This document shows positions 30,664 to 34,451 of a DNA stretch of 64,000 bases, piece by piece. The notes under the pieces are model-generated. The model saw only the letters and a list, made by a program, of their open reading frames with translations. It did no database searches and was not told the origin of the DNA. Each line of letters begins with the position of its first letter. Position 1 is the stretch's first letter. Made by a program: the position numbers and the translations under genes. The stretch is from an uncultured Mycoplasmatota bacterium (lineage in GTDB: Bacteria; Bacillota_I; Bacilli_A; RF39; UBA660): the NCBI GenBank assembly GCA_900547225.1, contig URFW01000001.1:128456-192455 (forward strand). Reading direction: 5' to 3'.

Positions 30664-31133
30664 TGGATGAAAGAATAATATTAAATACGGATGGCAAAAT
30701 AGATTTAACGATACCAAAAGATTTTGAAGAATATGATAATACGATTGATATTTATTTGCATGGAACGGATGAACTTGTTGGAATGATATGGTTTGAAGAT
30801 TTTTCGGATGATGAGTTTACTAAGTATTATGGTAATGTTGGTTATGTGATTAAAGAAAAGTTTAGAAGAAAAGGTTATGCATTTTCAGCGCTTAAACTAT
30901 TAAAAAAAGTCTTGCTTGATAATGATATTGATAAAATGATATTTAGTATATTTCCAAATAATATTGCTTCTTGTAAAACGGTGGAAAAATTAGGTGCCAG
31001 AATACTTTGCTATAGAAACGTACCTAAGAATCATTCTTTGTATAATTTTTCCGAAAATCAAGTAGTAATATATGAATATAACATTGAAAGGAATAGTAAA
31101 TATGAGGAAGATAAAACTAAAAAGCATTTATAG
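30664..31133 (+). CDS. GNAT-family acetyltransferase
   Basis: Start at MDERIIL after RBS aggag. [20 protein letters not shown] matches the GNAT motif A region. About 156 aa. Confidence 0.6.
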
Positions 31134-31341
31134 ACATTTTAAGGGTAACTTATATTTGGTAGAAGATTTAGCAGTTCACTCGGAAACAGGGGAAATACTT
31201 GTAATATATAGACACTTGTATGATGATTGTGCTTGTTTTGCAAGACCACTTGATATGTTTTTATCAGAAGTTGACCATGAAAAGTATCCTGATGTAAAAC
31301 AAAAATATAGGTTTGAAGAGGTTATAATACCTAAAAAATAA
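31102..31341 (+). CDS. DUF1653-family small protein
   Basis: [11 protein letters not shown] motif. Overlaps the GNAT 3' end by 32 nt. Confidence 0.5.
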
Positions 31342-31352
31342 AAGGAGGACAT

Positions 31353-31853
31353 ATGTTAAAAGAATACTTAACAGAAGAAAAGTATGAAGAATTAAAAGAA
31401 AGTAATGATATGATTTATAAGGCTTTAGAATTATCATTAGAGTTATTTAAAAGCGACACTGATAAAGGCGGATTTCCTTACGTTCTTCATCTATTTTACG
31501 TATATAAAAACGTTTTAGAAAAAGAAGAAAAGGTAGTAGCACTACTTCACGATGTTATTGAAGATAAAAACGTAACTAAAGAAGATTTATTAGAAATTGG
31601 TTTTCCAAGCAAAATAGTAAGTGATATATTAGTACTAACTAGAAGAAAAGACGTAAGTTATGATGCTTATATAGATAACATAATAAAAACCGGTAGTAAA
31701 GAGGCTTTAGAAGTAAAACTAGCAGATTTAAAAAATAACATAGATTTAACTAGGATAAAAAATCCTTCCGTAAAAGATTATGAAAGAGTAGAAAAAAGGT
31801 ATATGCCTTCTTATGAAAAAATACTAAATAGATTAAAGGAGATAGAAAAATGA
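31353..31853 (+). CDS. HD-domain protein of RelA/SpoT-hydrolase type (small alarmone hydrolase-like)
   Basis: HLFYVYKNV...VALLHDVIEDKNVTKEDLLEIGFPSKIVSDILVLTRR aligns with the RSH HD motif H..V...LLHDxxEDT...FG..V..LV.GVTK. 166 aa. 4-nt overlap with serS. Confidence 0.6.
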   Translation: MLKEYLTEEKYEELKESNDMIYKALELSLELFKSDTDKGGFPYVLHLFYVYKNVLEKEEKVVALLHDVIEDKNVTKEDLLEIGFPSKIVSDILVLTRRKDVSYDAYIDNIIKTGSKEALEVKLADLKNNIDLTRIKNPSVKDYERVEKRYMPSYEKILNRLKEIEK

Positions 31854-33142
31854 TAGATATTAAATTAATAAGAGAAAACAAAGAATTAGTAAAAGAAAAT
31901 ATTAAAAAGAAGTTTCAAGATAAGAAATTACCACTTGTTGATGAAGTTTATGATATGGACATAAAGTATCGTAAGATAAAAACAGAAGCTGATGAAAAAA
32001 GAAGTAAGATTAACTCTTTAAGTAAAGAAATAGGAAATCTTATGCGCAATAAAGATATAGATGGTGCAAACAAAATAAAAAATGAAGTTGCATCTATTAA
32101 AGAATCTATTCCGGAAATTGAAAAAGAAGAGGAAATGCTTGAAAAAGAAATAAAAGAAAGAATGATGGTAATACCAAACATAATAGCAAACGACGTTCCA
32201 ATTGGAGAAGATGACTCTAAAAACGTTGAAGAAGGAAGATTTGGAGAACCTAAAGTGCCTTCTTATGAAATTCCATATCATTCAGATATAATGGCTTCAT
32301 TTAACGGATTAGATAAGGATGCTGCTGCAAGAGTATCTGGTAATGGTTTTTACTATTTAATGGGAGATATTGCACGTCTTCATTCAGCTGTATTAGCATA
32401 CGCAAGAGACTTTATGATAGATAAGGGATTTACATACTGCATTCCACCATATATGATTCATTCTGATGCGGTTGATGGAGTTATGTCGTTTGAAGAAAAA
32501 GAAGCTATGATGTATAAAATAGAAGGTGAAGATTTATACTTAATAGGTACGTCAGAACACTCTATGATAGCTAAGTTTAAAGATCAATTATTAACGGAAG
32601 ATATGCTTCCTATTACAATGACATCATATTCTCCTTGCTTTAGAAAAGAAGTTGGAGCACACGGAATAGAAGAACGTGGAGTATATAGAATTCACCAGTT
32701 TGAAAAGCAAGAAATGGTAGTAGTATGTAAACCAGAAGATAGTGAGTCTTGGTATAACAAGATGTGGAATTATTCTGTTGAATTATTTAGAAGCCTTGAT
32801 ATTCCAGTTAGAAAACTTGTTTGCTGTTCTGGAGATTTAGCAGACCTTAAATATAGATCTTGCGATATAGAAGCTTGGAGTCCTAGACAACAAAAATACT
32901 TTGAGGTATGTTCATGTTCTAATCTTACTGATGCACAAGCAAGAAGACTTGGTATACGTTATAAAAAGTCTGATGGAACAAAAGAGTTTGCACATACTTT
33001 AAACAATACCGTTATCGCTCCTCCTAGAATGTTAATTGCATTTTTAGAAAACAATTTACAAGAAGATGGAAGTGTTCTTATACCAGAAAAATTAAGACCT
33101 TATATGGGTGGTAAGGATAAACTTATTCCGGCAAATAAATAA
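31850..33142 (+). CDS. serS: Seryl-tRNA synthetase
   Basis: 430 aa. N-terminal coiled-coil arm, class II motifs (FRKEVGAHGIEERGVYRIHQFEKQE, motif 3 region). Confidence 0.9.
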   Translation: MIDIKLIRENKELVKENIKKKFQDKKLPLVDEVYDMDIKYRKIKTEADEKRSKINSLSKEIGNLMRNKDIDGANKIKNEVASIKESIPEIEKEEEMLEKEIKERMMVIPNIIANDVPIGEDDSKNVEEGRFGEPKVPSYEIPYHSDIMASFNGLDKDAAARVSGNGFYYLMGDIARLHSAVLAYARDFMIDKGFTYCIPPYMIHSDAVDGVMSFEEKEAMMYKIEGEDLYLIGTSEHSMIAKFKDQLLTEDMLPITMTSYSPCFRKEVGAHGIEERGVYRIHQFEKQEMVVVCKPEDSESWYNKMWNYSVELFRSLDIPVRKLVCCSGDLADLKYRSCDIEAWSPRQQKYFEVCSCSNLTDAQARRLGIRYKKSDGTKEFAHTLNNTVIAPPRMLIAFLENNLQEDGSVLIPEKLRPYMGGKDKLIPANK

Positions 33143-33223
33143 AAGGATTAATTCCTTTTTTTATTTGTGTTAAATTTAATTTTATGATATCATACTTTCT
33201 ATTAGAAAAAGAGTGATTGAAAA

Positions 33224-33691
33224 ATGAGATACTATGTTGATAAAGACACCATGGATTTTTTAGAAGAAAACGTAGAAGCAGTAATCTATTTGCTTAAAAA
33301 AGCATATATTAGTACTAAAGAGTATTATAAAGGAAAAGCTCTTTCTGATTTTCTTTACTTTAATACTTATAAAACATTTACTAATGGATATTGTTTTTAT
33401 TTTTCAAGAATGCTTAAAAGCATTTATAAAAATGCTTGTTTTGTTTCATGTGATAAATATTATGCTCATATAAGTCATATATTTATTAAGATAAAAGGTG
33501 ATATTTATGACGTATATGGTAAAAGAAACATAAGTAAATATGAAAAGTTAGAAAATAAAGAATTAGAAAAAATAGGTTTAAATCACATTGAAGTAGAAAG
33601 TGAAATATATGAAACATTTAAGATGTATTTTCATAAGTATTTAGATTTGTATGTGAGCTATAACAAGCTTTTTATCAAGAAAAAACATTAA
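33224..33691 (+). CDS. Hypothetical protein
   Basis: 155 aa, Y/K-rich, no recognisable domain. Lies in an AT-rich islet. Confidence 0.35.
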   Translation: MRYYVDKDTMDFLEENVEAVIYLLKKAYISTKEYYKGKALSDFLYFNTYKTFTNGYCFYFSRMLKSIYKNACFVSCDKYYAHISHIFIKIKGDIYDVYGKRNISKYEKLENKELEKIGLNHIEVESEIYETFKMYFHKYLDLYVSYNKLFIKKKH

Positions 33692-33808
33692 AAATTATTA
33701 AAAAAACTTGCATTATTTAAAAAAATGTGGTAAATTCTTTCTATCGCTATTTTTTATAGTGATTTTAATTTGGCTTTAATTTTATTATATAAAGAAAGGA
33801 GAAATACA

Positions 33809-34078
33809 ATGTTAAAAGAACAAAAGCTTATAAGTTATCTTGTTGTTCGTGAAAAAGTATCTACGGGTTATTTAAGTAAATTTAATATTGCTAAAGATGA
33901 TTTTAATTCTTTACTTGTACCTAACAATGCAGAATTAAGAAGATACTATGATGAAGAATATAAGCGTGCACTAACAAAAGTTATGGATGACGAATACGTA
34001 GGAATAACCTTTGATAACTTAGATGCAATTAAGGAAGCATTAGAAGAAAAAGAAAAAGCAAAATCACTTGCTATGTAA
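33809..34078 (+). CDS. Small hypothetical protein, paralog A
   Basis: Start at MLKEQK after RBS aaaggag. C-terminal motif RRYYDEEYKRALTKVMDDEYVGITFDNL shared with the next gene. Confidence 0.4.
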   Translation: MLKEQKLISYLVVREKVSTGYLSKFNIAKDDFNSLLVPNNAELRRYYDEEYKRALTKVMDDEYVGITFDNLDAIKEALEEKEKAKSLAM

Positions 34079-34235: not shown

Positions 34236-34451
34236 ATGAAAACAGAAATTGAATTATTAAATTATTTAAAAAAATTTATTATAAGTAAGGAGATATTTAA
34301 CATAAATATTAAACCTCGCAATATAGATATACTAAAAAGATATTATGATGATAATTATAAAAAGGCTTCTATATTAGTTATGGAAGATGAATATGTAGGT
34401 ATTACGTTTGATAATTTAGAAAAAATAAATACTTTAATTAAAAAAAGTTAG
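34236..34451 (+). CDS. Small hypothetical protein, paralog B
   Basis: KRYYDDNYKKASILVMEDEYVGITFDNL shares the C-terminal motif with paralog A. Confidence 0.4.
   Translation: MKTEIELLNYLKKFIISKEIFNINIKPRNIDILKRYYDDNYKKASILVMEDEYVGITFDNLEKINTLIKKS

Follow-up and report, generated by a model that had tools for sequence, protein, structure and literature searches.

An Aph1-family small alarmone hydrolase is a constant member of a serS operon with a predicted serine-specific T-box in uncultured Bacilli

The Aph family of small alarmone hydrolases (SAHs), described in 2023 with more than 2,000 members, has as its sole established role immunity to a phage-borne (p)ppApp toxin (PMC10083569). Its founding member, Aph1, cleaves (p)ppApp but leaves (p)ppGpp intact (Ahmad et al. 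2023, PMC10083569), and all 12 of the diverse Aph homologues that were purified hydrolysed ppApp (PMC10083569). The physiological role of the many chromosomal members that are not linked to a toxin was left open by the authors, and some homologues lie near ‘translation’ genes (PMC10083569). Here we describe an aph-like gene in a 64,000-nucleotide stretch of DNA from an uncultured Mycoplasmatota bacterium (contig URFW01000001.1; this whole stretch is called the window below), where it lies directly upstream of serS, the gene for seryl-tRNA synthetase (SerRS), in an operon headed by a T-box leader, that is, a tRNA-sensing riboswitch. The general mechanism of T-box control was reportedly set out by Grundy and Henkin. 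The T-box-controlled genes collected in a 2008 survey encode synthetases, transporters and biosynthetic functions, with a few of unknown function, and the text of that survey contains neither ppGpp nor ‘HD domain’ nor pyrophosphohydrolase (PMC2494555).

The operon comprises four genes in the order T-box leader, GNAT, DUF1653, aph-like, serS, and its features, all on the forward (+) strand, are as follows.

30398..30426, +: sigma-70-like promoter candidate, TTGACA-17 nt-TAATAT, with 10/12 consensus matches; it ends about 10 nt before the T-box leader
30436..30626, +: T-box leader RNA, tRNA-sensing riboswitch (Rfam RF00230, 97.5 bits)
30584..30650, +: T-box terminator helix followed by the U-run UUUUUAUUU (-21.7 kcal/mol, z-score -4.1); its 5' arm overlaps the T-box/antiterminator sequence
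30663..31133, +: GNAT acetyltransferase, 156 amino acids (aa), its ATG at 30663 preceded by AGGAG (PF13302 3.6e-11, PF00583 1.1e-7)
31102..31341, +: DUF1653 small protein, 79 aa (89 aa from an alternative start at 31072), overlapping the end of the GNAT gene (PF07866 2.8e-24)
31353..31853, +: small alarmone hydrolase of the Aph1 family, a RelA/SpoT homologue (RSH)-type HD domain of 166 aa; predicted (p)ppApp 3'-pyrophosphohydrolase
31836..31841, +: AAGGAG, read from the sequence, the Shine–Dalgarno site of serS; it stands 8 nt ahead of the ATG of that gene and falls in the 3' terminal part of the hydrolase gene
31850..33142, +: serS, seryl-tRNA synthetase, 430 aa (TIGR00414 2.9e-123; PF02403 and PF00587)
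33141..33166, +: weak A+T-rich hairpin followed by a U-run, the probable operon end (-6.3 kcal/mol, z-score -2.4)

The list of open reading frames (ORFs) and the sequence agree on the hydrolase gene (ATG start, 166 aa) and on serS directly 3' of it. Around 31850-31853 the sequence reads ...gaaaaATGAtag, in which the last Lys codon of the hydrolase ends at 31850, its stop codon TGA occupies 31851-31853 and the ATG of serS occupies 31850-31852, so that ATGA holds both the stop and the start and the two frames overlap by 4 nt. Spacings across the operon are -32, +11 and -4 nt, which leaves no space for internal signals between the genes and makes the four a translationally compact unit. The serS product scores 412 bits against the TIGR00414 equivalog cut-off of 301.65 (NCBIfam), and Seryl_tRNA_N (PF02403) and the class II core (PF00587) are both matched (Pfam), as in the bacterial-type enzyme. 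The G+C content of the hydrolase gene equals that of its surroundings (26% for the genome), and neither a second serS nor a tRNA-Ser gene was found in the window.

The 166-aa protein is a single-domain RSH-type SAH of the Aph1 family. When it was compared with the Protein Data Bank (PDB) by phmmer the best match was the ‘(p)ppApp hydrolase’ Aph1 of Bacteroides caccae (7SMG; E 6.7e-23), residues 18-156 aligning with Aph1 residues 5-140, and the homology takes in the C-terminal region (Y90-E143) by which its authors delimited the Aph1 family. SpoT followed far behind (E 4.6e-8), and after it Rel, MESH1 and other SAHs. The AlphaFold2 model, built from 38 homologues (predicted local distance difference test score 96.1, predicted template-modelling score 0.91), is one all-helical domain, and no other Pfam or NCBIfam domain was found in the protein. 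In a Foldseek search with this model the first four ranks were the four chains of 7SMG, with target-normalised template-modelling (TM) scores of 0.90-0.94, root-mean-square deviations (rmsd) of 1.3-1.7 Å and 37-38% identity (best match TM 0.80/0.94, 1.3 Å, 37%), and the next, at TM scores of about 0.6-0.7, were MESH1, Pseudomonas aeruginosa SAH (PaSAH), Corynebacterium glutamicum RelH and the hydrolase domains of long RSH proteins. More than 40 RSH hydrolase chains were matched with a probability of 1.0. All PDB sequence matches at E <=0.01 and the top 46 Foldseek matches are RSH hydrolases (Aph1, SpoT, Rel, MESH1, PaSAH, RelH) or HD proteins of RSH type. Curated domain models miss this family: Pfam HD_4 (PF13328), which is built on the (p)ppGpp SAHs and Rel/SpoT enzymes, gave E 0.083 and 13 bits, under its cut-off of 27.2, no Pfam model was matched at E <=0.01, and NCBIfam spoT_relA gave 1.4e-5, far under its cut-off, so that the PDB sequence and fold searches were needed. 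A generic HD protein of the YpgQ/YedJ type (PF01966) was also considered and set aside, as PF01966 was not matched even at E <=10 and no YpgQ/YedJ-like chain appeared among the PDB sequence matches or the top 50 fold matches.

The RSH motif HLFYVYKNV...VVALLHDVIEDKNVT...IGFPSKIVSDILVLTRR is present in the translation. Across 40 clade members there is no variation in the catalytic and metal residues H46, H66, D67, E70, D125 and N129, D71 is kept in at least 90%, and in the wider family each metal or catalytic residue is retained in 145 or 146 of 146 representatives. The ratio of non-synonymous to synonymous substitution (dN/dS) of the hydrolase gene is 0.16-0.22, indicating purifying selection, against 0.05-0.07 for serS.

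Six residues set Aph proteins apart from ppGpp hydrolases, namely D24, R96, D116, R119, K133 and Y134 in Aph1 (PMC10083569), and of these D24 and R119 fix the specificity, as the D24R/R119A variant gains ppGpp hydrolysis (PMC10083569). The corresponding residues here are D37, N109, D131, R134, R149 and Y150, four of which (D37, D131, R134 and Y150) are identical to those of Aph1. The specificity pair is kept almost throughout the 146 family representatives (D37 in 144 and R134 in 145). The guanine-stacking Arg of the ppGpp-type enzymes (R43/R44 in TtRel; ‘R-K/R’ before the PY..H motif) is replaced by D37-K38, which matches D24-K25 of Aph1. For comparison the window holds one further RSH protein:

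13335-14471, +: short RSH, 378 aa, with hydrolase (HD_4) and synthetase (RelA_SpoT) domains, about 17 kb upstream of the operon

At the position of D37-K38 this protein has the ppGpp-type R-K. The Aph1-like D37 and R134, set against the Arg-Lys of the second RSH, would place the operon hydrolase in the Aph1 family with (p)ppApp rather than (p)ppGpp as its predicted substrate, and judged by these residues (p)ppGpp turnover is the less likely chemistry. A sequence-only reading of this DNA had proposed here a 166-aa ORF with an RSH motif whose stop overlaps the serS start, encoding a RelA/SpoT-type HD hydrolase akin to (p)ppGpp hydrolases. The ORF, its junction and the RSH-type fold all stand, the best match being Aph1 and not a generic pyrophosphohydrolase; the guanosine substrate probably does not carry over, since Aph1 is the closest relative, an Asp takes the place of the Arg and R134 is kept.

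The T-box leader matches RF00230 over its full length (model positions 1-219) with 97.5 bits against a gathering score of 93 (E 4.3e-21). Its specifier codon, read in the frame set by the Rfam alignment and by the usual GAA-NNN-purine context, is UCU (Ser) at 30526-30528, within GAA-UCU-A at 30523-30529; GAATCTA is invariant among nine aligned leaders, and a UCU specifier is also found at loci L099, L100 and L104. The T-box motif GGAUGGCACCG lies at 30596-30606, and its UGGC (30599-30602) could pair with a tRNA 3' GCCA end, as would the UGGU that stands in its place at other loci. The discriminator base of tRNA-Ser is G73, and T-box antitermination requires a free tRNA 3' end. The terminator helix is built from the 5' flank of the T-box motif and the sequence 3' of the motif, none of 200 shuffled sequences folded equally well, and the U-run lies just upstream of the GNAT start. 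A consensus terminator scan of 30350-33300 returned no terminators, the hairpin at 33141..33166 included; its loop and G+C criteria are ill-suited to a genome of 26% G+C, which is why this simple scan overlooked the T-box terminator and RNA folding was used instead. The hairpin 3' of serS probably marks the operon end. As promoter-consensus sites are no more frequent in the sequence than in shuffled sequence, the promoter candidate is credible only because it sits just upstream of the start of the T-box match at 30436. On sequence and structure prediction, then, Ser-specific T-box control of the operon is borne out, and with so strong a terminator read-through into all four genes should rise with uncharged tRNA-Ser.

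Conservation was followed in a genome scan, which started from a single sequence as query and so reached close relatives only (14 loci), and in a wider sample made up of a metagenome scan and exact-protein look-ups. The 14 genome loci come from uncultured Bacilli, and the identity of their hydrolases to that of the window is 55-89%. Their labels are ‘Clostridium sp. CAG:594’, Bacilli, Mollicutes or Mycoplasmatota, and the few under other organism names are probably binning errors; ‘Candidatus Aphodocola’ and metagenome-assembled genomes are also among the relatives. The core of T-box, aph-like gene and serS is present in every related locus in which it can be tested (serS in 21/21, T-box in 21/21), down to about 46% identity of the hydrolase. 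Directly 3' of the hydrolase gene serS is found in 14/14 genome loci and in L095-L101, with junctions that range from a 7-nt overlap to a 4-nt gap. A T-box lies upstream in 13/14 genome loci, above the gathering score in 8 and at 78-92 bits in 5; the 14th has no readable T-box region owing to a contig end, the contig of L004 starting too near its genes. T-boxes were also found at L095, L096, L097 and L099, and by their motif at L098, L100, L101 and L104. The motif GGATGGYACCG is confined to serS-operon-type hydrolase loci among the 106 loci examined.

What lies between the T-box and the hydrolase gene is far less constant. GNAT and DUF1653 genes occupy this interval in the window, L001, L002 (with two GNATs), L005, L008 and L095, and precede the hydrolase gene in the same way in L004; DUF1653 stands alone in L003, L007 and L009; and there is no intervening gene in L006, L010, L011, L013, L014 and L096-L098. 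In L012 the Ser T-box and the hydrolase-serS pair stand about 2 kb apart, with unrelated ORFs between them (4031-6000). This interval contains a masked-base stretch and ORFs of 131, 124 and 118 aa, the first of which, judged by eye, looks like a PD-(D/E)XK nuclease; it may have been inserted into the operon or may stem from faulty assembly. A second sub-clade (about 47% identical) has the same hydrolase-serS pair in a neighbourhood with rnpB, CDP-OH_P_transf and UPF0154, and its T-box, with a UCU specifier, is degenerate (a local search gave 46.6 bits, E 1.7e-9). There the gene for RNase P RNA (RF00011, 264-273 bits; L099 3121-3458, L100 3039-3376) lies about 1.5 kb upstream of the T-box-hydrolase-serS group. 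In a third sub-clade (P0126, 46% identical) a Ser T-box lies directly 5' of the hydrolase gene and the contig ends before the next gene. The surroundings thus vary among loci while the hydrolase-serS pair stays intact, and the identities of hydrolase and SerRS co-vary across loci (Spearman 0.77). In this lineage the Ser-T-box serS operon always includes an Aph1-family hydrolase gene, and the informative point is that, unlike the GNAT and DUF1653 genes, this gene is never deleted from the operon. At L001 (a CAG:594 scaffold) there is a second exact GGATGGYACCG at 2435-2445, about 2.8 kb upstream of the T-box of the serS operon, which presumably marks another T-box-regulated gene and is absent from the gathering-threshold Rfam scan.

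The sequence-only reading had also suggested possible control by uncharged tRNA-Ser and a direct coupling of charging status to alarmone turnover, with a check of the HD-serS linkage in other clostridial genomes. Control is upheld by the RF00230 match, the UCU specifier and the terminator; the linkage recurs in 21/21 testable related loci, although these belong to uncultured Bacilli and not to clostridia in the strict sense; and of the coupling, the T-box and operon parts hold while the direct link to alarmone turnover is still our inference.

Taken together we put at roughly 0.6 the probability that this is an Aph1-family (p)ppApp hydrolase placed in a Ser-T-box serS operon so that an adenosine alarmone is cleared when charging fails. 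The enzyme would remove the 3'-pyrophosphate of an adenosine alarmone, most likely ppApp or pppApp. When tRNA-Ser is uncharged, T-box read-through would raise all four operon genes, and the hydrolase and SerRS would be translated together from their overlapping or abutting frames. The purpose would be faster removal of a toxic adenosine alarmone just as charging fails. Its source could be RSH synthetases, which would be most active at that time and might make (p)ppApp as a side product; synthesis of the adenosine analogue has reportedly been seen with a small alarmone synthetase of Bacillus subtilis and an RSH of Methylobacterium. Alternatively, the cell might be poisoned by a (p)ppApp-making toxin. 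Toxin-made (p)ppApp drains ATP and blocks purine synthesis (preprint 10.1101/2021.04.30.441581), and would therefore hamper re-charging; clearance of the alarmone would keep up the purine and ATP supply for re-charging tRNA-Ser.

Several points weigh against this proposal. Adjacency is weak evidence, as cells cannot do without serS, whose expression relies on the promoter and T-box further upstream, so that a break within the pair would be lethal no matter what the hydrolase does; all of the loci come from one lineage, so that the arrangement may be a single ancestral insertion; and the scope is one uncultured gut lineage, in which the functional tie is drawn from gene order and regulation. 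Two of the six signature residues differ from those of Aph1, R96 being lost to N109 (Asn in 21/146 representatives) and K133 being replaced, conservatively, by R149 (Arg in 36/146), and 2 of the 12 Aph homologues tested showed modest ppGpp hydrolysis as well (PMC10083569). Aph1 is a compact eight-helix protomer that forms a tetramer through its N and C termini (PMC10083569), and in the model of the window protein the Aph1 core is preceded by a further helix (residues 8-16) and ends in a long C-terminal one (140-165), so that its quaternary structure may differ. Lastly, apart from the RSH at 13335-14471 no (p)ppApp or (p)ppGpp synthetase was found within the 64 kb of the window.

The alternative that survives best, and that we regard as unlikely, is that a (p)ppApp-detoxifying gene of the immunity type, possibly phage-derived, landed between T-box and serS in an ancestor and has been carried along since, its T-box control being incidental; it would persist because the interval tolerates insertions and serS is inseparable from its promoter. 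The changing content of the interval (nothing, DUF1653, one or two GNATs, or the ORFs of L012) fits such a history. The wider family is large, with 3,492 clusters at 50% identity scoring E <=1e-10. The hydrolase matches the phage family phrog_990 at 3.6e-37, founding member Aph1 is itself a prophage-encoded immunity protein, and in 0/80 metagenome Aph-like loci at <=45% identity was serS, DUF1653, GNAT or YebC found within 5 kb. P0386 likewise has no serS linkage and adjoins a DNA-alkylation-repair gene. The near outgroup relative P0125 (L105 4001-4708; 46% identity, an 80-residue N-terminal extension, no serS linkage) sits among small same-strand ORFs that have no Pfam matches and a phage-like look, a context that hints at descent of the serS-linked clade from a mobile Aph gene. 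Against a mere passenger, the hydrolase gene has not been lost, as GNAT and DUF1653 genes have, across sub-clades that are just 46-47% identical or thereabouts; it is under purifying selection; its tight junction with serS, including a Shine–Dalgarno sequence within the end of the hydrolase coding region, is kept throughout; and it is not obvious what a purely defensive gene would gain from lower expression under full charging of tRNA-Ser.

Quite improbable, in our view, is a (p)ppGpp hydrolase of the Mesh1/SAH type whose T-box induction would lower (p)ppGpp when tRNA-Ser is uncharged and so tie charging directly to turnover in the stringent response. The RSH hydrolase fold with its full catalytic set, the weak spoT_relA match and the two homologues with some ppGpp activity would all suit it. 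The nearest relative by a wide margin is nonetheless the (p)ppApp-specific Aph1; the position of TtRel R43 is D37 here and R134 is kept, when Aph1 needed both mutated for ppGpp hydrolysis; an RSH whose ppGpp-type hydrolase domain is intact is already present in the window; and the breakdown of ppGpp while tRNA is uncharged would oppose the stringent response.

That RSH (13335-14471) has no C-terminal TGS/ACT half; its hydrolase residues are intact, whereas in its synthetase domain the catalytic Glu (RelSeq E323) is Gln and H312 is Asn, as they are in 114 and 110, respectively, of 118 homologues of about 370 aa. The protein may represent a short Rel, typical of the lineage, in which the synthetase is dead or altered. 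If the synthetase is indeed inactive or altered, alarmone metabolism in the lineage would be unusual and, as a speculation, the T-box might be its sole link to tRNA charging. The gene that follows it encodes a PAP2 phosphatase. Since the sole long-type RSH of the window is without the ribosome- and tRNA-sensing C-terminal half and has the conserved Glu-to-Gln change, one can picture that the T-box has taken over the link between tRNA charging and alarmones, the Aph-like hydrolase being a dedicated SerRS partner that would clear an adenosine 3'-pyrophosphate that blocks charging (ppApp, or one at the tRNA CCA end) or would pair with SerRS physically; this, too, we think a long shot.

Very doubtful, finally, is a tRNA-repair partner of SerRS that would take a 3'-pyrophosphate off the tRNA CCA end (the mark left by FaRel2/CapRel toxins of the toxic small alarmone synthetase, toxSAS, class) or remove some other adenosine 3'-(pyro)phosphate: human MESH1 and Cellulomonas marina ATfaRel do restore aminoacylation of pyrophosphorylated tRNA (10.1101/2021.04.30.441581), the modified A76 is an adenosine 3'-pyrophosphate and so chemically near ppApp, and strict juxtaposition with serS in overlapping or abutting frames in 21/21 loci would fit a shared substrate, but no tRNA activity of Aph1-family members is reported in the literature examined, the window contains no toxSAS and no operon protein has a PADLOC defence match, a 3'-blocked tRNA would be unlikely to trigger T-box antitermination, and it would not be explained why serS alone needs such a partner.

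The other two genes of the operon are dispensable passengers. GNAT is present in 7/22 comparable clusters (the window and the 21 related loci with readable upstream sequence; its carriers besides the window are L001, L002 with two copies, L004, L005, L008 and L095), and DUF1653 in 9/14 genome loci; the hydrolase is in all 22. The GNAT is of the Acetyltransf_3 type, with weak NCBIfam matches only and a generic GNAT (3FBU) as its best PDB match, and the DUF1653 protein has a single PDB match, the uncharacterised 3BE3. A TacT/AtaT/ItaT-type toxin was considered for the GNAT and judged unsupported, as it has no small antitoxin gene beside it (the T-box lies 5', and DUF1653, hydrolase and serS genes 3'). 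No antitoxin-type domain was found in a Pfam scan of its neighbourhood, and a PADLOC scan of the GNAT, the DUF1653 protein, the HD hydrolase and a YunG-like protein gave zero defence matches. The earlier speculation that an upstream GNAT acts on an aminoacyl substrate, as GNAT toxins do on aminoacyl-tRNAs, finds no support in its generic type, its PADLOC result or its patchy occurrence, and although the gene is indeed there, the DUF1653 gene, overlooked in that reading along with the T-box leader, lies between it and the hydrolase gene. At L095 (1505-2233) the DUF1653 and hydrolase genes are joined as P0059, a 242-aa in-frame fusion in the context YebC, T-box, GNAT, fusion, serS; being a single case on one 4.2-kb contig it may be real or a sequencing or assembly artefact. 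Such a fusion is not a general rule, as 0/10 longer family representatives (with N-terminal extensions of 60-180 residues) carry DUF1653.

Elsewhere in the window, the segment between serS and murD encodes a Phage_YunG-like protein (33224-33691, + strand; PF24591 1.4e-6) and two small paralogous ORFs (33770-34078 and 34236-34451, + strand) that share YYD..YK.A...VM.DEYVGITFDNL, and all three are also found 3' of serS in L001. At 27015-28271 (+ strand) there is a 418-aa protein whose start, MKNKKGFTLIELLAVIVVLAIIIII, has a type IV pilin/pseudopilin-like prepilin signal and which has a long repetitive C-terminal part.

A clade in which the predicted T-box wires hydrolase expression to tRNA-Ser charging, and in which the hydrolase frame abuts or overlaps that of SerRS, offers a concrete, testable hypothesis about what endogenous (p)ppApp (or another such adenosine 3'-pyrophosphate) does during starvation for amino acids, and it would add an alarmone-metabolising enzyme to the kinds of gene under T-box control. 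Were the hydrolase a dedicated SerRS partner, a (p)ppApp-type hydrolase would for the first time have a housekeeping role under riboswitch control. The Aph family, the T-box and serS are each known; an alarmone hydrolase fixed in a T-box-controlled aminoacyl-tRNA synthetase operon we could not find described, and a search of a full-text library returned no paper that ties an alarmone hydrolase or ppApp to serS or a T-box, although the ‘translation’ category in Dataset S3/Fig. 5B of PMC10083569 might list such a context.

Among described systems the closest is Aph1 of B. caccae (7SMG), which, like the window protein, consists of one compact HD domain of RSH type; over about 140 residues the two are 37% identical (rmsd 1.3 Å), and they have the same metal and catalytic residues. 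Aph1 confers immunity and is encoded in a prophage beside the MuF-Apk2 (p)ppApp synthetase toxin and Tis1, whereas the window hydrolase is encoded with serS in a T-box-headed housekeeping operon of the chromosome that has no toxin gene near it, and it has about 13 extra N-terminal residues (the added helix), a longer C-terminal helix and Asn in place of R96. MESH1, P. aeruginosa SAH, C. glutamicum RelH and the Rel/SpoT hydrolase domain belong to the same superfamily and fold, with the H..HD..ED..D..N constellation, but these (p)ppGpp enzymes are just 21-25% identical to it at TM scores of about 0.65, their guanine-stacking Arg is Asp here and their additional C-terminal helix is absent. The SAH antitoxins of toxSAS systems (ATfaRel, PaSpo; Jimmy et al. 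2020, Kurata et al. 2021) are likewise stand-alone RSH hydrolases, of a kind that could neutralise (p)ppApp or tRNA pyrophosphorylation; the window hydrolase, with no toxSAS adjacent and no PADLOC match, has an essential aminoacyl-tRNA synthetase as its partner. The T-box-regulated serS genes of Firmicutes, such as that of B. subtilis, have the same Ser-specifier leader, terminator/antiterminator and response to uncharged tRNA-Ser, and what sets the present operon apart from them is that one to three extra genes, always including that of the alarmone hydrolase, stand between the leader and serS.

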